A DNA stretch of 64,000 nucleotides from Candidatus Brocadiia bacterium (GTDB lineage: Bacteria; Planctomycetota; Brocadiia; SM23-32). This document shows, piece after piece, positions 13,339 through 53,577 of the stretch. The notes under the pieces are model-generated. The model searched no databases. It saw nothing but the letters and a program-made list of their open reading frames with translations, and was not told where the DNA came from. The DNA lies in the NCBI GenBank assembly GCA_046538485.1, contig JBKHIT010000008.1, positions 42,857 to 106,856 of the forward strand, given 5' to 3'. Positions within the stretch are counted from its first letter, which is position 1; each line of letters starts with the position of its first letter. Position numbers and translations under genes: made by a program.

Positions 13339-13376
13339 AATTCGCGGATTTTGGCGGTAAAGGTATCTCTACCCTT

Positions 13377-13625
13377 TAGCCCGCTTTTCTCAAGCGGCGC
13401 CAGTGCTGCAGCTGCGCGGAAGCCAAGCGCAGGAGTATTTTCATACTTCAAGCGCAGGCTGACAAAGAAGATGCAGTGCTGGCGCCGTTCCCGAAGGGCG
13501 AACCGGCGTTTTCAGATTCAGAATACACCGTGTGTGCTGAGATCAGCCACTCAATGCAGTGTAACGTTTGTCTGTCGTGTCGTTTAGAATAATACTGCTT
13601 TTAGCTTCGTGAGAAATGCGGGGTA
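13377..13625. mobile_element. MITE-like element family M, copy 1
   Basis: Ends are TAgcccgcttttctca and tgagaaatgcggggTA (imperfect TIR with TA at both ends); homologous to 53236-53577 and 34860-35022. Confidence 0.75.
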
Positions 13626-47184: not shown

Positions 47185-50100
47185 TTACGGCTGAACTTCG
47201 ATCTCCACGGGCTGGGTCGCATCGCGGACCTCCGGCTCGTAGTACTGATAGACTTCCGTCGGAGGCGTCTTGGCCTTAACGGGGTATTTGGCCCGCAGGT
47301 GATACGTGAACCGTACGGGTTCGTTGCCGACAATGCTCTCGAAATACAGGATCACCTGTCGACCGGTCAGGGAATATCGCTGAATCAAGCCCTGCTCTTT
47401 CAGGCGGTCAAAATCCTCCGTCATGACCTGAAAGCCCGGCGGAATGCCCAGATCAACAATTGTCATGCGGGCCACACCGCTCCGGTTGTAGCGGATCGTC
47501 GCCTCGCACGCTAATTTGTCGTCCGGACGCAACTTCGTGGTATCGTACGCTACATCGATGCTCATGGTCTTCTGGGTGGTCGGGGTTTTTCTCTCCCAGG
47601 GGAGGTAATGGGTGGCGACGATCTGGTAGGCAAAATTCGCTTCCCCGGCCGGTTCCAGAGATATCCGGTTGGGTCCGGGTTTCTGGTGTTCGCGCAGGCT
47701 GATCAGCCGGAAAACATCGCTGGTCTCCGGCGTGATGGTCAGTTCTCTGGCGAATTTTCCGTTGACCGAGATCGTGATCGGGAGGTCTTGTTTCAGTTCG
47801 GTTGCGGGCCCGGTGCCAGCAAGGAGGGCGCGCATCGCGTGTACAGTAGCCTGGGTGGAATGCCACGTGCCGGCTGAATCTTTCTCCTCGATGAGCCAGG
47901 CCAGAGCTCTGTGCGCCGTGCCGAGATGAGATTGAGCTTTCAACATCGCGTATGCGGCCAGGGCCGTGGTTTCAATGTTCAGGACATTGCCCCGGGAGTG
48001 GGTCACACCCTCCGATTTGGAACTCCAGTGCGCAAGGTCTCCGTCCTCCTTTTTCGTGGCGTCAAGCATCTTAATTAAATCCCCGGCGCCGGATCGCTCG
48101 CCCGCGACGAGCGCATTGGCGCAGACGGCAAGCGTGTAAGCGTCTTCGTCGCTCGATACGTTCTGTTCGACGTAGTCGAGGGCACGTGAAAGGTTGGAGT
48201 CTACGTTTCCCGACTCCGCCAGAGCCCATGCGATGTAGGCGGTTGTTCGGAGGACGGCGCCCTGGTAGGCGTTGATGGCACCTTCCTGGATGCCCCCCTG
48301 GGTCGGTTCCCATGAGCCATTGCGTTTTTGCTGCGAGAACAACCACCGGCGCGTTCGCTGTATGACGGCGGGATCGACCTCATAAACTTTCGCCATGTCG
48401 TTGAATTCCATCAGACCGTACGCTGTCAGAACGCTGTGGGCGGGCGCGTTTCCGAACCATTCGAATCCGCCCCCGCTGACTTCGTAGGAGAGCAGACGCT
48501 GGTAACCGAGGTTGATGTAATTGAGCGCTTTCATCTCGATTTCGGGCCTGGATTGATCCGTGCGGCGCATGTAGTCGAGCGCCAGAATGTTGGGGTATGT
48601 CACTGAAGACGTCTGTTCGAAACAGCCAAACGGTTTGCGGAAGATGCTGTCCAGTCCTTCCATCACCTGGCTGAAGGCGCCGGGATAGATTTTCACCAGC
48701 AGGTCGGAGGCGCCATCGATGGCCCGATCGGGAATCACGACCGTGCGGTTCAGTTTGCCGGTGAGGCGCCCGTTATCCGTCTGGACGATCTCTTTGCCGT
48801 CGGGTCGGACGCGGACCTTACGCCGGATCGCGTCGGCCATCTCGGATCCGAAAGCGCGAACGGTGAGGGTGTGGCGGCCGGGTTTGAGCGCGCGCAGTTT
48901 CATCGGGATACTCGTAACTTCCCGGGGACCGATTTCGAGCCGGCGTTCGGTCTCCCCGAGCATCTCGCACCAATCCGCATCGTCGACTTCCAGCCGGATC
49001 AGCTGGGTTTCGTCGAGATAGTTGTAGAGGGCGATCGGGACGCTGATTTCGTCGTGTTGGGTGAGGGCGACCGGGAAATCAATATCCACAAAGAAATCCT
49101 GAAACACCCGCAGCCCGAAGGTCTCCGCGCCCAATCTTCCCTGTCTCGAGACCGCGCTCATACTGATCCGCCAGGTGGTGATGGAATCGGCGAGCGGGAC
49201 TTCCAGTTGAGCCCGGCCGGCCTCATCGGTAATAAGTTCCGGTTTCCAGAGAAGTGTTTCCGGGAAATAGTGTCGGACGCGGCTGGGGGCTTTCAAACTT
49301 TCATCTGCAGCCTTTTTGCGCCCCTTTGCGGCTCCGCGAACAGGGCTTCCATCAAGCGCTTCAGTCATCTCCGCAAACTTCTGGCGTGCGGCCATCCGGG
49401 CGGGAGACAGTGCCGGGAGGAGCAACCCGGCGAAGACGAGGAGCGCGAGAACGGGCAAGGCACCGCTGCGAACGGCTATCCAGACCGCGCGTTTTGTTGA
49501 AAGTTTCTGGCAGACAGAGTGTCCCGCAATTGACAGCGCGGGCAGCGCCGCAAACCAGAGACCGATCATAATCCCCGCTTCCAGCACAATTGTTTCTTCC
49601 GCCAGGCCCAACTCAGCTTCGGCGATTGCAAGGGTTAGGATCGATACGCTGGCTGCAATATAGGCGAAAGGCAAAAGCGTGGCGAATTTACGGAAAAGCG
49701 GCAGGTTGCTGACTCCGGGGCCCTTCCGGAATTTGAAAACCTTGGCTATGAGGGCTATCAACATGCCGATCCAGGCAATCACCCCAAAACTACCGCTAAA
49801 AAGTTCGCCGTGGTAGCGCGCAAAAGCATTCTCGATAATTAGTTCATCAATAAGCAATCCCACGATGAGTGCTGTGACGGGAATAACCAGTGCCAACAAC
49901 CAGCTTGCTGTCAGCCACCAGCATGCCCGTCGGAGTCGGTTCATCTCTTTTGCATTTAGCTCCGGCACCGGACGTCGTCTGAACAGTTTGTAAAGGCCGT
50001 AACCGACCATGGGCAGCACAAACAAGACATACAGTGCAAACGGGACCTGTGCGGCCAGTTTCAGGACAGCCCTGCGGTAGTTCACTTTCACTTTTCGAAA

Positions 50101-52362
50101 TCGTCTCTGTTTTTCCTCAAATGAAATGCTCTGCGCTTTCCTCGGTGTGGCCGTTCCCTCGGCGGCGGAGAACAGCGCAACCCGGGCTTCTTTCAGTTGT
50201 GGTTCCGATTCCCCACGCGGCTCAATGGCCTCTTCAGCCGTCAGCGGCATATGGCCGTGAATCTCATAGGAAGGTTTGAGTATCTCTTCCTGAAGCGTGA
50301 AATAGACCCGTTCGAGTCCCGGGCGCATTTCCTGGAGAGCGAACACGGCCTCGTCCACTCCGGCCAGGCCCAGCGCCGCCTGTGTTGGTTTTCCTTCGGT
50401 CCCGGTTACCATGAACGTCAAGGTTGCGTTTTCCCCCGGACGGTACGTTTTTTTGTCCATTTTGGTCTCGATCGAGATCTGATCGGGTCGGTTGACCTGG
50501 ACCACTTTTGCGTCGCTCACGATATTACCGTCGGGCAGGATGCGATACGCGTGGAGTTCGAGTGTTCCGAACAGGTCGGGCGGTAGATCGAGTGCAACGG
50601 ATCCGCGCCCTTTCTCGATATCAAGGGCTTTGCTTAACATCGTCCGGCTGTTTTTCACGACATCCACGAAAACCCGGGCCCGTCGGTCGCCGGAGAGGAC
50701 GGATACCTCAGCCGTTTCCCCCGCTTTATAAACGGCTTTGTCAGTGCGGAGGAGAAAAGCGTGGACCCGCTGATCGACGCGGAGAGGTCGGCTGACTTTC
50801 ACCCGGCGCCCTCCGTTGTCTTCGGCTTCGATCGTGAGTTTCATGCGGGGGGACCGGGGGGTGATTTTGACTTTGGCGAGTCCATTCTCCGCGGTGCGTG
50901 TTCTGCGGCGATCAGCACCGATGATCAGTTCGGTCTGTGCCGGTCGGCCGTCGGGATATGACGTCACGATGTAGAGGATGTTTTCGACGCCCTGGACGAG
51001 TCTGCCGCTTTCCGGGAGCACGGCCACGCGTATCGGGCGGGTTGTGACGGTCAGTTCTTCAGTAATTTCCTGGGTATGACCGGCGGTATCGGTCACTTTA
51101 GCTTTGAGAGAAACCGTGGCATCTCCCTTTTTGCGGGCGGTGCCGGTGAAATGGCGTTTCAGAGGAAGCTGGAACGAAAAATGCCCTTCAGCGTTGGTTT
51201 TGCCCTCGGCACTGGCGAACTGACGGAACTTTTCCACAAACTCCGAGGCTGTGATCTGCACCTCCGCGTTCCGAACGGGTTTCCCGAATGTGTAGCGAGC
51301 GGTTATTTCGCCGATGAGCATTTCGCCGGGCCGGTAGAACGTTTTTCCGCAGCTTATGGTGGCCTTGAACTTCGGCAAACGATAACGTTTGACCGTCACC
51401 GTGCGTTCCGATGTGGTGTCGCCGACATGGGCGGAGATGGTGTAGCGACCGGTGTTGACCTGATCGGCGAGCTGGAAATCGGCGGCCGCGATCCCGTATT
51501 GGGAGGTTTTCAGCGTCTTTTTAAAGACCTTGTTGCCTTTAGCGTCTTTGACTTCGATCGTTGCCGGCTGGTCGGCGACGGGGTGGAGGTCGCTGGTGAA
51601 AAGCGACAGGGTCCGCATATGAATCGTCTGCCCGGGCTGGTAGAGCGGTTTATCGCTGCTGATCATTACCCGGAAAGACCGTTCGATGGTGATGGTGCGG
51701 GAGACGACGTTTTTCCCCGCGGCTGATTTTGCGCGCACCCGGAGGGTATAATCGCCTTCCGATAGGTCCTCGGCCAGTTCTGGCTCAACCCGGGCGTTGC
51801 CGTGTTTGTCCGTTTTTGTTGTGCCTTCCCATATCTGTTTCCCACCGGGGTCCACCAGTGCGGCGGATACTTTCGCGTTAGGGACGGGTTTTGATTTTTT
51901 GCCGTCACGCACGAAAAGCCGAAACGACGCGATCTGTCCCGGTGTGACCGCCCAGCGTCCGTAGACCATAGTTTCCTGTGGTTTCGCGTGACGCGTGGCG
52001 ATGTGGCGGTCGATTCCGAGTAAGCCGATGGTTATCAGCGCGATGGCGGCGGCGGCGATTTTCCAGAACCGTTTGCTTCCCAGCCAATCTGCCTTCGGTT
52101 CGACGGGTTCAGAAGCCATGGTTTGACCCTCCATTCCTTTCTTTTGCGTCTGCGCCGCTTTTATGGTCCTTTCGGCCAGATCTTCGGGAGGAGGAGGTGC
52201 ATCCCATTCCCGCAGAGCTTCCTTCTGGCGGCGTATCTTGTCCCGTGCCTGCCGGCATTCGCGGCAGATTTGCAGGTGTTTTTCTACCTGCTCTCTTTCA
52301 TCTCCATCGAGCAGATCGAAGACCAGGTCATAGAGTTTTTGCTGGACTTCTTCGCACTTCAT
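47185..52362 (-). CDS. Zinc-finger anti-sigma domain fused to a thioester-containing alpha-2-macroglobulin with a multi-TM insert
   Basis: HLQICREC and TM; MG repeats (SDKPLYQPGQ, YRLPKF, TDKAVYKAGE, DKKTYRPGE); VDEAVFAL; about 6 TMs; VRHYFPETLLW; ADSITTW; PFGCFEQTSS; GGFEWFG; STQATV; YQYYEPE. Confidence 0.9.
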   Translation of the reverse strand: MKCEEVQQKLYDLVFDLLDGDEREQVEKHLQICRECRQARDKIRRQKEALREWDAPPPPEDLAERTIKAAQTQKKGMEGQTMASEPVEPKADWLGSKRFWKIAAAAIALITIGLLGIDRHIATRHAKPQETMVYGRWAVTPGQIASFRLFVRDGKKSKPVPNAKVSAALVDPGGKQIWEGTTKTDKHGNARVEPELAEDLSEGDYTLRVRAKSAAGKNVVSRTITIERSFRVMISSDKPLYQPGQTIHMRTLSLFTSDLHPVADQPATIEVKDAKGNKVFKKTLKTSQYGIAAADFQLADQVNTGRYTISAHVGDTTSERTVTVKRYRLPKFKATISCGKTFYRPGEMLIGEITARYTFGKPVRNAEVQITASEFVEKFRQFASAEGKTNAEGHFSFQLPLKRHFTGTARKKGDATVSLKAKVTDTAGHTQEITEELTVTTRPIRVAVLPESGRLVQGVENILYIVTSYPDGRPAQTELIIGADRRRTRTAENGLAKVKITPRSPRMKLTIEAEDNGGRRVKVSRPLRVDQRVHAFLLRTDKAVYKAGETAEVSVLSGDRRARVFVDVVKNSRTMLSKALDIEKGRGSVALDLPPDLFGTLELHAYRILPDGNIVSDAKVVQVNRPDQISIETKMDKKTYRPGENATLTFMVTGTEGKPTQAALGLAGVDEAVFALQEMRPGLERVYFTLQEEILKPSYEIHGHMPLTAEEAIEPRGESEPQLKEARVALFSAAEGTATPRKAQSISFEEKQRRFRKVKVNYRRAVLKLAAQVPFALYVLFVLPMVGYGLYKLFRRRPVPELNAKEMNRLRRACWWLTASWLLALVIPVTALIVGLLIDELIIENAFARYHGELFSGSFGVIAWIGMLIALIAKVFKFRKGPGVSNLPLFRKFATLLPFAYIAASVSILTLAIAEAELGLAEETIVLEAGIMIGLWFAALPALSIAGHSVCQKLSTKRAVWIAVRSGALPVLALLVFAGLLLPALSPARMAARQKFAEMTEALDGSPVRGAAKGRKKAADESLKAPSRVRHYFPETLLWKPELITDEAGRAQLEVPLADSITTWRISMSAVSRQGRLGAETFGLRVFQDFFVDIDFPVALTQHDEISVPIALYNYLDETQLIRLEVDDADWCEMLGETERRLEIGPREVTSIPMKLRALKPGRHTLTVRAFGSEMADAIRRKVRVRPDGKEIVQTDNGRLTGKLNRTVVIPDRAIDGASDLLVKIYPGAFSQVMEGLDSIFRKPFGCFEQTSSVTYPNILALDYMRRTDQSRPEIEMKALNYINLGYQRLLSYEVSGGGFEWFGNAPAHSVLTAYGLMEFNDMAKVYEVDPAVIQRTRRWLFSQQKRNGSWEPTQGGIQEGAINAYQGAVLRTTAYIAWALAESGNVDSNLSRALDYVEQNVSSDEDAYTLAVCANALVAGERSGAGDLIKMLDATKKEDGDLAHWSSKSEGVTHSRGNVLNIETTALAAYAMLKAQSHLGTAHRALAWLIEEKDSAGTWHSTQATVHAMRALLAGTGPATELKQDLPITISVNGKFARELTITPETSDVFRLISLREHQKPGPNRISLEPAGEANFAYQIVATHYLPWERKTPTTQKTMSIDVAYDTTKLRPDDKLACEATIRYNRSGVARMTIVDLGIPPGFQVMTEDFDRLKEQGLIQRYSLTGRQVILYFESIVGNEPVRFTYHLRAKYPVKAKTPPTEVYQYYEPEVRDATQPVEIEVQP

Positions 52363-52378
52363 ATATTTTCACTTTCGG

Positions 52379-52996
52379 TTACTGGTTTTGAGAGACGTCA
52401 TGAGCTTCGGCGATATCTTCCAGCTGTTTGCGGAGTTTCTGAAGGGCCAACCGCATTCTGGATTTGACGGTTCCCGGAGGTATCTGAACAGTATCGGCAA
52501 TTTCGGCGTAGGTCATCTCGTGGTAAATCTTGAGGATGAATACCTCTTTCTGTTCGGCGGGGAGTTCGCTGACGGCCTCCTCAATTCGTTCCCCAATTTC
52601 CTGGCACTCTATTCGGTGCGGAGGTGAGGGGTCAGATGAGCGGGGTTCCGGAGAACCGTTGAGCGGACGTGAATCTCTGCTTCCTTTTTTGCGCCAGTGC
52701 GAGCGACAGAGGTTCGTCGCGATTGTGTAGAGCCAGGTTTTGAACGAACTGTTTCCCCGGAAAGATTCGGCCTTCTGGAAGACCCGCATAAACGTTTCCT
52801 GAAAAAGATCCGCCGCGACGGTGCGGTTTCCCGTCAGTTTGTAGAGCAGACCATGGAGTGGTTTTTCATACCGCCTTACCATCGTCTCAAACATGGTCAT
52901 ATCGCCCTCTATAAAGCCAAAAAGAAGGTCTTTGTCGCTTAACTCCGTACGATCCCCGCGATAAGAGCGACTCTGCGGTGCGGGGGTCGATTCCAT
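52379..52996 (-). CDS. ECF-type RNA polymerase sigma factor
   Basis: Region 2 DLFQETF and FKTWLYTIATN; region 4 LPAEQKEVF, MTYAEIA and GTVKSRMRLA; AGGAG SD. Confidence 0.95.
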   Translation of the reverse strand: MESTPAPQSRSYRGDRTELSDKDLLFGFIEGDMTMFETMVRRYEKPLHGLLYKLTGNRTVAADLFQETFMRVFQKAESFRGNSSFKTWLYTIATNLCRSHWRKKGSRDSRPLNGSPEPRSSDPSPPHRIECQEIGERIEEAVSELPAEQKEVFILKIYHEMTYAEIADTVQIPPGTVKSRMRLALQKLRKQLEDIAEAHDVSQNQ

Positions 52997-53015
52997 TTGT
53001 GTCTCCTGTTAAGCG

Positions 53016-53044
53016 TAGACGCATGGGCGTCCCGAATTGATCAC
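53016..53044 (-). promoter_or_regulatory. Candidate autoregulatory ECF promoter
   Basis: Minus strand GTGATC-N17-CGTCTA, 20 nt upstream of the sigma ATG. Confidence 0.35.
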
Positions 53045-53235
53045 CAAAAAATGCCAAAAAAACAAAAAAACAGCTCCGACGGTCAATTCGGGGTGTGCAT
53101 GATAACTTCTCGGTGGTGGGAACGACAATCAAAACAGCACCGATGGCGGGGAGATAAGGGGAAGAGACGGAAGGGGCATAAGGCACGTCAGGGACTCATC
53201 GGAGTGGAGCTTTGTTTCCGCGGTAGCGGAGATCT

Positions 53236-53577
53236 TAACCCGCTTTTCTCAAGCGGCGCCAGTGCTGCAGCTGCGCGGAAGGCAAAGGCGGGTGTATTCT
53301 TATACCTCAACTGCAGCCTGATAGAGCAGAGAGGCAGAGCCTCTTTCACCAATGTGAAAATTGTGGCGGACTCCCTGTAACTATTGGCAGCTTCTGGTAG
53401 TTTATCGTCGGAGAAACCGCCAACTGGCGGCTGGCGCCGCTCCCGCAGGGCGAACCGCCACCTTTCGACTCAGGTTAGCCACTGTGTACCGAGATCAGTT
53501 GCGAAATATAGTGCAAAGTTTTTCTGTGCCGCCGTTTATAATAATTATATCTTTAGGTTCGGTAGAAATGCGGGGTA
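53236..53577. mobile_element. MITE-like family M, copy 3
   Basis: TAacccgcttttctcaagcggcgccagtgctgcagctgcgcggaag (identical to copy 1 over about 42 nt) ... agaaatgcggggTA. Confidence 0.75.

Follow-up and report, generated by a model that had tools for sequence, protein, structure and literature searches.

The locus lies within a window of 64,000 nucleotides, the whole stretch of DNA analyzed here, and comprises two genes on the minus strand. The upstream gene (52379-52996) encodes an ECF (group 4) sigma-70 factor of 205 amino acids, which carries the Pfam domains Sigma70_r2 (PF04542, residues 39-105) and Sigma70_r4_2 (PF08281, residues 136-188). The protein possesses regions 2 and 4 only and comprises ∼200 amino acids, the composition that defines ECF (group 4) factors. 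It scores 117.8 bits against TIGR02937 (cut-off 42.9), and none of the equivalog models matched it at its cut-off. A spacer of 16 nt (52363-52378) separates this gene from an ORF of 1725 amino acids (47185-52362, stop codon included), which forms one operon with it. The coordinates of both genes and of the gap agree with a preliminary description of this DNA.

The N-terminal ∼52 residues of the long ORF (residues 1-52; 52207-52362, minus strand) can be read directly as a zinc-type class I anti-sigma domain located in the cytoplasm. The domain matches zf-HC2 (PF13490) at residues 3-37 with 34.4 bits (cut-off 22.2) and is modeled as three helices (residues 3-14, 20-32, and 34-52) with pLDDT values of 80-91. 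Cys-3, His-29, Cys-33, and Cys-36 are candidate zinc ligands, and the H-x3-C-x2-C motif HLQICREC spans residues 29-36 (52255-52278, minus strand), the position at which it had been noticed initially. A homologue search with residues 1-130 gave no match at E ≤ 1e-3 in a large protein database. The anti-sigma domain is followed by a transmembrane helix (TM1, residues 99-117; 52012-52068, minus strand; assigned by hydropathy), which is preceded by the juxtamembrane motif PVEP-x3-WLGS(R/K)RFW. This motif is found family-wide, and 90% or more of the 32 sequences compared retain Glu-88, Trp-93, Phe-99, and Trp-100, whether the anti-sigma domain is present or absent. Beginning with a cytoplasmic domain and TM1, the protein has no signal peptide and, as noted before, no lipobox.

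It is likewise directly readable that TM1 crosses the membrane and that the following MG1-MG6 ring (residues 129-675; 50338-51978, minus strand) is periplasmic. The ring matches the Pfam families MG2, MG3, and A2M_BRD (residues 538-676), and its structure model is all-β. Further downstream follow the A2M family match (residues 1036-1125), overlapping the motif FPETLLW (residues 1033-1039), the thioester domain (TED; residues 1229-1513; 47824-48678, minus strand; PF07678, E 8.9e-49), and a C-terminal MG8/receptor-binding-type domain (A2M_recep, PF07677; residues 1631-1713; 47224-47472, minus strand; E 6.9e-16). All Pfam matches in the fusion protein are above the curated cut-offs. The thioester motif CFEQ (residues 1247-1250; 48613-48624, minus strand) is embedded in an invariant GCFEQTS, and the sequence YQYYEPE is located near the C terminus. 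The intact CFEQ, FPETLLW, and the C-terminal YY.PE of the preliminary description are all recovered. With an MG ring, a TED containing CxEQ, and a C-terminal MG8/receptor-binding-type domain, the protein belongs to the A2M/TEP/complement superfamily.

In the superfamily, an exposed, soluble bait region typically lies between MG6 and MG7. Here, this position holds a bundle of six transmembrane helices (residues 748-984; 49411-50121, minus strand; from hydropathy and AF2), followed by a disordered linker of ∼40 residues. The preliminary description had reported one TM helix and then a full A2M; TM1 and the complete A2M are borne out, but six further TM segments had been missed, so that the route of transduction is likely to differ from the one first envisaged. 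The hydrophobic segments of the insert (residues 764-791, 813-848, 852-879, 893-921, 924-951, and 958-992 by hydropathy) lie between A2M_BRD and FPETLLW. The AF2 model of the insert has a pLDDT of 85.4 overall and of 94-98 in most helices, and the charge bias of the loops agrees with the positive-inside rule across 39 sequences. Because six membrane passes are an even number, MG7-CUB-TED-MG8 are likewise located in the periplasm.

Fold and family searches with the insert gave chance-level matches only in Pfam, no usable match in the ESM Atlas, a best E value of 0.25 without a specific PDB fold match in Foldseek, and generic helix bundles (best Z 8.2) in VIA-align; these searches show neither novelty nor a function of the insert. 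When the insert was compared by phmmer with 1.84 billion protein representatives, all 20 matches fell within this A2M family, as members or as fragments, and thus no stand-alone homologue was seen. The linker behind the bundle (residues 985-1027; 49282-49410, minus strand) is periplasmic, predicted to be disordered (pLDDT <50 for residues 982-1022), and hypervariable in sequence and length, without any consensus residue in an alignment of 39 sequences. Residues 1007-1039 align with the stretch of A2ML1 that immediately precedes and includes FPETWLW, which places the linker at the position of a bait; its cleavage by proteases is putative.

The genome was binned from a metagenome assembly and consists of 143 contigs, with 88% completeness and 4% contamination, a provenance that could suggest that a small anti-sigma gene and an A2M gene were wrongly joined by assembly or annotation. 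However, a contig from a sequencing run of a different study spans positions 50770-53300 and crosses the junction in the same frame, covering the sigma gene, the gap, the ZAS domain, TM1, and MG1-3; 61 differences and 2 gaps separate it from the sequence analyzed here. An N terminus with H-x3-C-x2-C on a full A2M, in one continuous ORF, also occurs in 23 of the best 120 homologues, and two collections both contain loci with the fused ORF. The composition does not break along the fusion. The independent contig, the dozens of homologues with the same layout, and the conserved sigma linkage described below rule out a chimera, and the probability of an artificial joining is negligible.

To place the fusion among its relatives, 160 related loci were fetched, of which 106 were evaluable and 54 were not; a cytoplasmic N-terminal extension was counted from a length of at least 75 amino acids. 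An ECF sigma gene lies directly upstream on the same strand in 18 of the 19 loci with an extension, compared with a single one (L048) of the 87 loci without. In the remaining extension locus (L030), the C terminus of the sigma factor is cut by the contig end and one ORF is inserted. The adjacency to an ECF gene, which the preliminary description had marked for a check of its conservation, is therefore conserved. Relatives are encoded in at least 586 species genomes and at least 646 metagenome stretches, and the module is widespread in Planctomycetota and Verrucomicrobiota. The anti-sigma domain is present in ∼60% of the sampled insert-bearing members; the anti-sigma/A2M fusion is no rarity, but one of the principal forms within a large clade. 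None of the 31 other genomes searched in the order of the window's genome contains the fusion gene at E ≤ 1e-50, which marks it as accessory.

The extension is associated with the membrane insert. At least two TM helices are found at the bait position in 91 of 91 sequences with an N-terminal extension, and the extension occurs in 0 of 77 sequences with at most one TM helix at this position. Conversely, 58 of 149 insert-bearing sequences have no extension (some of them may be truncated gene calls), indicating that the insert serves a function that does not depend on control of a sigma factor. The association of extension and insert is phylogenetically confounded: the tree shows just two changes of the insert state, so that the extension-bearing genes all fall into essentially one clade, and a paired test of the association is without power.

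Only 34 of the 91 N-terminal extensions retain H-x3-C-x2-C, and 57 have lost it. By hhalign, the zinc-free extensions are homologues of the ZAS type (probability 98.6-98.9%, with E values of 1e-15 to 4e-17), and in the loci with a zinc-free extension (L007, L011, L088, and L090) a sigma gene is located upstream. This distribution bears on the view that the A2M body acts solely as an effector, whose fusion merely co-localizes or co-expresses it with a sigma pair controlled by generic envelope stress through intramembrane proteolysis triggered elsewhere. Many ZAS anti-sigma factors, such as RsrA and RsiW, indeed answer to cytoplasmic redox conditions or to generic site-1/site-2 proteolysis, and the four candidate zinc ligands of the fusion would be compatible with such control. 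However, zinc-free extensions that keep the sigma linkage argue against a redox switch as a general device, and the retention of a fused ectodomain of 1600 residues in many lineages argues for a part of the ectodomain in the signal. We regard the effector-only view as decidedly unlikely.

A complex of the sigma factor with residues 1-95 of the fusion, a pairing already suggested in the preliminary description, was predicted with a score of 0.81 in three of three runs, whereas the best of three controls reached 0.01. Of 157 solved complexes, 116 attain the mark used for this score, as do 2 of 215 mismatched pairs. Agreement between the runs extends to at least 86% of the contacts, and the pLDDT of the partner is at least 79. 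In the predicted complex, residues 1-95 sit between regions 2 and 4 and contact residues 33-74 and 131-200 of the sigma factor. Sigma factor and ZAS domain are a textbook type of pair, and the passing score may thus reflect likeness to solved complexes.

Upstream of the sigma gene, ∼20 nt before its RBS, lies a candidate autoregulated promoter element, ATC-N15-TGCGTCTA (53016-53041, minus strand). In a comparison with L087, the closest locus with available DNA, GCGCCC(A)TGCGTCTA and an upstream CATTTTT are kept, a weak indication given that it comes from two sequences only. A genome-wide search for ATC-N14-16-TGCGTCTA returned the site itself and three unconvincing ones, from which no regulon can be inferred, and a search for ATC-N16-18-TGCGTCTA likewise gave no convincing further site. 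AAC/CGT-type ECF promoter patterns showed nothing consistent upstream of 19 sigma genes from related loci. Among 78 flanking ORFs of 17 loci there is neither a recurrent neighbor gene nor a conserved protease gene adjoining the module. Sigma factor and fusion are thus a self-contained two-gene module.

Such autonomy would also suit a simpler arrangement, in which the anti-sigma domain gauges the level of intact A2M. Ordinary turnover of the protein or its removal by quality control, for example by an FtsH-type protease acting from the cytoplasmic tail, would free the sigma factor and restore A2M, and attack would not be sensed specifically. A suicide trap needs replacing whatever destroys it, there are no conserved partner genes, and the conserved motif was found only upstream of the operon itself. 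This arrangement, whose output overlaps with that of the explanation preferred below, leaves unexplained why the anti-sigma fusion is confined to members with a membrane-threaded bait and why the sigma-linked members show extreme conservation of the thioester together with Sec substitution. We consider a gauge of this kind unlikely, albeit with a chance that is not trivial.

The thioester itself is under strong constraint, with GCFEQT present in all of the best 120 homologues. In some relatives, the thioester codon is TGA, which probably encodes selenocysteine. Six TGA-type relatives were examined in full; in all six, TGA takes the place of the thioester Cys codon and is followed by a stable hairpin, and the same six carry the ZAS motif and an upstream sigma gene. 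The hairpins were judged by comparing energies per sequence; RNAalifold found no consensus structure in 22 regions downstream of TGA, as the hairpins differ in register.

A selenoester would alter the reactivity toward nucleophiles, and its occurrence hints at selection on warhead chemistry and not on caging alone. This would be in line with a sensor of the complement/TEP type, whose thioester would attack nucleophiles of foreign cells, polymers, or small amines rather than trapped proteases, the covalent event being the signal. The closest solved relatives (A2ML1, CD109, A2M, C3, and TEP1, with YfhM and SaA2M far behind) point in the same direction. On the other hand, a disordered hypervariable linker is still found exactly at the bait site, and the trap-typical MG ring and MG8/receptor-binding-type domain (A2M_recep, 1631-1713) are complete; nor do the data point to a particular target. 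A complement-like sensor without proteases as its target is therefore quite unlikely.

The explanation we prefer is a two-gene module of an ECF sigma factor and a membrane-bound anti-sigma factor whose ectodomain is a complete thioester A2M, in which activation of the trap, relayed via the membrane-embedded bait, frees the sigma factor; we assign it a probability of roughly 55%. The sensor role that the preliminary description had proposed for the A2M is partly supported; as far as computation reaches, none of the grounds named there for rejecting it was encountered. At rest, the anti-sigma domain would hold the sigma factor between regions 2 and 4. Cleavage of the bait-like linker by a protease, or discharge of the thioester, would lead to a rearrangement of the A2M body as in other family members. 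As the bait is threaded through the membrane, presumably beside TM1, we propose that this rearrangement is passed on to TM1 and from there to the anti-sigma domain, either directly or by exposing TM1 to intramembrane or cytoplasmic proteolysis, and that the sigma factor is released as a result. Site-2 proteases usually apply a size filter to their substrates. Bait cleavage would leave ∼550 periplasmic residues on TM1, which does not fit this filter.

Most simply, the freed sigma factor would transcribe its own operon and so replace the spent single-use trap; it may also switch on other genes of envelope defense. More tentatively, and with a probability somewhat short of even, the macroglobulin with its thioester, which in some relatives is probably a selenoester, could be regarded as a transmembrane receptor, in which bait cleavage or warhead discharge in the periplasm is transmitted through the bait bundle and TM1 to the anti-sigma domain and turns on the ECF sigma factor.

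The prevailing picture of bacterial A2Ms is that of protease traps that act passively and only once. If the proposed mechanism is true, the fusion would be the first A2M-family protein to control transcription directly and would add a new class of input to ECF signaling. Release of the sigma factor upon trap activation would tie a molecule of the innate-immunity type to bacterial gene regulation, explain what the undescribed membrane bundle in place of the bait is for, and provide a tractable system of two genes and one promoter in which to follow the transmission of A2M conformational signals. The family concerned is large and includes the probable selenocysteine-thioester variants. The arrangement of sigma factor and anti-sigma/A2M fusion, common to many bacteria, is apparently undescribed in print, as far as the portions of the literature available to us extend. 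Many sensor domains of ECF anti-sigma factors are known, and the same portions contain none that belongs to the complement/A2M family and captures covalently. This is in line with the preliminary description, which knew of no characterized system of this architecture; the literature searched, represented in part by excerpts, contains none either, planctomycete ECF surveys lying outside its scope.

Among known systems, the N terminus of the fusion resembles the ZAS class I factors of the pairs RsrA-SigR, ChrR-SigE, RslA-SigL, and RsiW-SigW, which share the helical domain with H-x3-C-x2-C and a gene position directly after the sigma gene. The predicted placement of the domain between sigma regions 2 and 4 would extend this likeness to the mode of binding. 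A single TM helix after the anti-sigma domain is shared with RsiW and RslA. Unlike these factors, the fusion carries as its ectodomain a thioester A2M of 1600 residues that re-enters the membrane six times, and the accessible parts of the literature searched contain no ZAS factor with an A2M-type ectodomain.

The ectodomain is most similar to the thioester proteins of eukaryotic type. Compared by sequence with solved structures, it matches A2ML1 (PDB code 7q1y), CD109 (8s3o and 9fx2/3), A2M (6tav and 7von), C3, and TEP1 best, with E values from 6.5e-68 to 6e-46. Eukaryote-type thioester proteins are also the best fold matches by Foldseek (E 1e-38 to 1e-30). The MG1-MG6 ring matches CD109, C3, and A2ML1 with E values between 1e-38 and 1e-33, that for CD109 being 1e-38. 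These proteins have in common with the fusion the MG ring, FPETxxW after the bait, CxEQ in the TED, and the C-terminal MG8/receptor-binding-type domain. CD109 is described as GPI-tethered to the membrane and as a modulator of signaling. The fusion is membrane-tethered as well, but via an N-terminal TM helix and a six-helix bundle inside the bait region, and differs further from the eukaryote-type proteins in its bacterial host and in a cytoplasmic end with a domain predicted to bind a transcription factor.

Bacterial A2Ms of the YfhM/ECAM type are lipoproteins and are often encoded next to pbpC. Here, as stated in the preliminary description, pbpC is not adjacent: no pbpC-like (transglycosylase/transpeptidase) gene was found among the 13 neighboring ORFs scanned in the window or among the 78 flanking ORFs of the 17 loci. 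YfhM/ECAM (5a42) and Salmonella SaA2M (4u48) are described as periplasmic thioester proteins that are attached to the inner membrane and are thought to trap invading proteases. The fusion is only weakly similar to both (E 1e-7 to 3e-8, ∼33-35 bits), with E. coli YfhM at E 1e-7 and 32.8 bits compared with E 6.5e-68 for A2ML1. From the type I bacterial A2Ms it is set apart by the absence of a lipobox, the TM-embedded bait, and the linkage to a sigma factor.

In its proposed logic, the module comes closest to systems that take binding or covalent acylation of an ectodomain as input, such as RsgI-SigI with its carbohydrate-binding modules and BlaR1. In PbpP-RsiP-SigP, RsgI-SigI, and BlaR1, binding or acylation outside the cytoplasm likewise leads to the release of a sigma factor or regulator. 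Whereas the sensors of these systems are a CBM or a penicillin-binding domain, that of the fusion would be a self-inactivating thioester trap, itself fused to the anti-sigma domain.

The module occupies the minus strand and is headed by a sigma ORF of 205 aa (52379–52996; Pfam Sigma70_r2 and r4_2, NCBIfam TIGR02937). The fusion ORF of 1725 aa (47185–52362) begins 16 nt downstream and carries zf-HC2 (residues 3–37), MG2, MG3, A2M_BRD (538–676), A2M (1036–1125), TED_complement (1229–1513), and A2M_recep (1631–1713). All Pfam matches on the two ORFs exceed the curated cut-offs. The gene pair of the preliminary description was thereby recovered, and the minus-strand motifs HLQICREC (52255–52278) and CFEQ (48613–48624), as well as FPETLLW, lie where it had placed them. 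Its statement that pbpC is not adjacent also holds, with no pbpC-like gene among 13 neighboring ORFs scanned. The upstream neighbor of the module is an aminotransferase gene, and the downstream neighbor is a convergent ORF without family. A ∼70-nt dispersed repeat (53235–53305; further copy at ∼13376–13446) lies between the aminotransferase and sigma genes. It has 31 matches in the organism's own genome and none in Rfam, and all four public sequencing runs show a spike in depth and loose ends there.

The suspicion that the anti-sigma and A2M parts had been joined by misassembly was addressed with contigs of four public runs, compared with window 49000–53300. Run X1 is a possible source of the window and not independent. 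A single contig from run X3, which belongs to a different study, covers 50770–53300 with 61 differences and 2 gaps, taking in the sigma gene, the 16-nt gap, the anti-sigma domain, TM1, and MG1–3. The junction is thus bridged in a separate study, and a second X3 contig covers 49543–50730, most of the membrane insert described below. No composition break was seen across the fusion ORF. The anti-sigma/A2M fusion is real.

The protein had been described as one TM helix followed by a full A2M. The A2M domains were recovered, but the TM count was incomplete: beyond TM1 (residues 99–117), a hydropathy scan finds six hydrophobic segments at residues 764–992, in the stretch that separates A2M_BRD from FPETLLW. 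Modeled with AlphaFold2 (37-sequence alignment), residues 701–1035 form a confident helical bundle (mean pLDDT 85.4, pTM 0.76). The model of residues 1–1200 (39 sequences; pLDDT 79.6, pTM 0.54) comprises three N-terminal helices, a low-confidence linker with a short helix (62–76), and the long TM1 helix, followed by an all-β MG region, the helical bundle (748–984), and MG7. In this model, pLDDT values flanking the bundle fall below 50 only at 676–719 and 982–1022. Across the aligned family, the segment that follows the final bundle helix varies in length and has zero consensus residues, and HMMER aligns residues 1007–1039 with an A2ML1 segment ending in FPETWLW. Therefore, the bundle sits inserted in the bait region, and a ∼40-residue bait-like linker is left after it.

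Because the number of inserted helices is even (six), the two A2M halves share one side of the membrane. Net loop charges fit this arrangement: +1.9, +3.2, and +1.8 in the three loops predicted to be cytoplasmic, −0.3 and −1.3 in the pair predicted to be periplasmic (39 sequences). The insert matches no Pfam family, and no specific fold match was found for its model. A search against 1.84 billion protein representatives returned just 20 matches, each of them a member or fragment of this A2M family. The insert evolves faster than the remainder of the protein, with identity to the window protein at 18–41% in the insert versus 37–63% over residues 1–1200. Directly before TM1, the motif PVEP-x3-WLGS(R/K)RFW (window 52066–52110, residues 85–99) is conserved in 90% or more of 32 aligned members, both with and without the cytoplasmic N-terminal extension that holds the anti-sigma domain, in keeping with TM1 being a part of the membrane module.

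A word-indexed protein search scored 7997 candidates, of which 1329 reached E ≤ 1e-3. The top 120 score 1323–3328 bits, and nearly all are 1640–1860 aa long. G-C-F-E-Q-T is kept in 120/120 of these best homologues, and the thioester is under strong constraint; H-x3-C-x2-C occurs inside the first 120 residues in 23/120. Source names, where given, include Planctomycetes, Phycisphaerae, Verrucomicrobia, Kiritimatiellae, and Thermoanaerobaculaceae. Scans with back-translated patterns put the number of related stretches at 586 or more in one-genome-per-species contigs and at 646 or more in those from metagenomes. The bait position lacks a TM helix in many Armatimonadota and others, holds a two-helix hairpin in Planctomycetia, and six helices in the window's clade and in rows labeled Myxococcales, Acidiferrales, and Anaerolineales. 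A few relatives (proteins P0117, P0010, and P0026 and locus L011) have eight to eleven helices or hydrophobic segments there; the membrane insert itself is expandable. A search with protein P0001 at E ≤ 1e-50 matched none of the 31 further genomes from the window's order (30 from the same family). In a sample of 301 genomes from the phylum, 85 have a match, the window's own included. The distribution is patchy and accessory, which suggests transfer or repeated loss. The window's own genome also encodes three more distant A2M-like paralogues (L002–L004; C43:72676–76518, C80:5096–8986, and C40:7452–11273), with open frames of 2156, 1812, and 2693 aa and 22–29% identity to the window protein over matched stretches.

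Linkage to the sigma gene was assessed in the best 80 loci from each of two contig collections, which share at least one contig (L020 = L100). Loci were counted as extension-bearing if 75 or more residues separated the ORF start from the last hydrophobic segment before MG1, and the window's sigma was searched against ORFs of at least 60 aa (phmmer, E ≤ 1e-3); 54/160 loci were not evaluable because they lacked the 5′ end or had under 650 nt of upstream sequence. A sigma gene lies directly upstream on the same strand in 18/19 extension loci, whereas only one of 87 loci without extension has one (L048, ∼300 nt upstream). Fisher's test gives p = 4e-18, although the relatives are not independent. 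The ECF adjacency is thus conserved. In the nineteenth extension locus, L030, the last 59 residues of a sigma factor lie at the contig edge, and an unannotated 180-aa ORF (L030:211–753) separates them from the ZAS-A2M gene; L146 and L048 have ∼300-nt gaps between sigma and A2M gene at the same place. About two-thirds of extensions lack the zinc motif. Nevertheless, hhalign pairs the zinc-free profile with the ZAS profile at 98.6% probability (50 sequences) or 98.9% (the 34 longest), and the upstream sigma is also present in all four zinc-free six-TM loci with DNA (L007, L011, L088, and L090). The N-terminal domain is homologous to anti-sigma domains. The flanks of 17 extension-bearing loci (78 ORFs) contain no recurrent family; the module consists of two genes. 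In L085 (3286–3990) and L086 (2964–3590), an ECF sigma gene lies directly downstream of partial six-TM A2M genes with 52–53% identity to the window's gene, and may mark where a second, tandem module begins. In the region preceding the sigma gene, L087, the closest locus with DNA (sigma match at E 1e-54), shares CATTTTT and GCGCCC(A)TGCGTCTA with the window; in this two-sequence comparison, the element may represent an autoregulated promoter.

A trait table of 226 full-length rows (119 proteins and 107 loci) relates the extension to the insert. At least two TM segments occupy the bait position in 149/226 rows, of which 34 have a ZAS extension, 57 a zinc-free extension, and 58 no extension; the 77 rows with no more than one TM segment there all lack it. 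On a FastTree tree built from FPET to the C terminus, leaving out the columns of both traits, the insert changes state 2 times and the extension 17 times. The insert therefore arose once or twice. Within the insert clade, either gains or losses of the anti-sigma domain were frequent, or some N termini are miscalled. The tree offers 14–17 independent pairs, almost none of which differ in the insert, so the restriction of the extension to insert-bearing members is phylogenetically confounded.

Co-folding of the sigma factor (13-row alignment) with residues 1–95 (30 rows) gave a complex score of 0.81 in three of three runs, compared with 0.01 for the best of three controls. In the tool's calibration, which holds roughly for custom alignments, the mark is met by 116/157 solved complexes and 2/215 mismatched pairs. 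At least 86% of contacts recur between runs, partner pLDDT is 79 or higher, and contacts are predicted on sigma residues 33–74 (region 2) and 131–200 (region 4). Structures of sigma/class I anti-sigma complexes have already been solved; the predicted complex therefore indicates likeness to these rather than demonstrating binding by this copy.

Many matches in the phylum sample carry exactly one in-frame TGA. In 22/22 loci selected for this feature (L173, L174, and L176–L195), the TGA stands in place of the thioester Cys codon (G-TGA-F-E-Q), beyond which the reading frame continues open to the normal C terminus. Over 57 nt (+9 to +66 after the codon), mean folding energy is −20.4 kcal/mol for TGA versus −8.6 for TGT and −10.5 for TGC (22 TGA loci against 164 Cys-codon homologues; Mann-Whitney p = 8e-12). 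Mean z against shuffles is −2.2 versus 0 to −0.2 at similar G+C content. No single consensus hairpin emerged downstream of the TGA in the 22 loci. selB scores above the curated cut-off in 4/5 TGA-type genomes tested. The six TGA-type genes studied over their whole length (L196–L201) all encode the ZAS motif and are immediately preceded by a sigma gene; thus, the sigma-linked family includes probable selenocysteine (“selenoester”) variants of the thioester.

With the architecture, topology logic, and conserved operon established, a signaling route can be proposed. The A2M body would provide the input, its activation would be relayed via the membrane-embedded bait and TM1, and the sigma factor would then at least restore the spent trap. 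The relay via bait bundle and TM1 is the weakest part of this proposal, in part because a 550-residue periplasmic stub would not suit classical site-2 proteolysis. Within the papers covered, full-text searches combining anti-sigma or ECF with macroglobulin or MG2 returned nothing relevant. Macroglobulin, A2M, and thioester are absent from the main text and part of the supplement of the NAR 2021 ECF reclassification, and from the main text of the mSystems 2020 class I anti-sigma paper; in the 2021 archaeal A2M paper, anti-sigma and bait both go unmentioned.

By sequence, the window protein best matches the solved structures of A2ML1 (6.5e-68), CD109 (8.9e-67), and human A2M (∼1e-63), followed by those of C3 (∼5e-49) and TEP1 (6e-46), whereas Salmonella SaA2M (3.4e-8) and E. 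coli YfhM (1.1e-7) match far more weakly. Foldseek with the 1–1200 model agrees (CD109 1e-38, ECAM 2e-30). Membership in the YfhM class is therefore rejected, and the window protein is nearer in sequence to A2ML1, CD109, human A2M, C3, and TEP1 than to YfhM or SaA2M.
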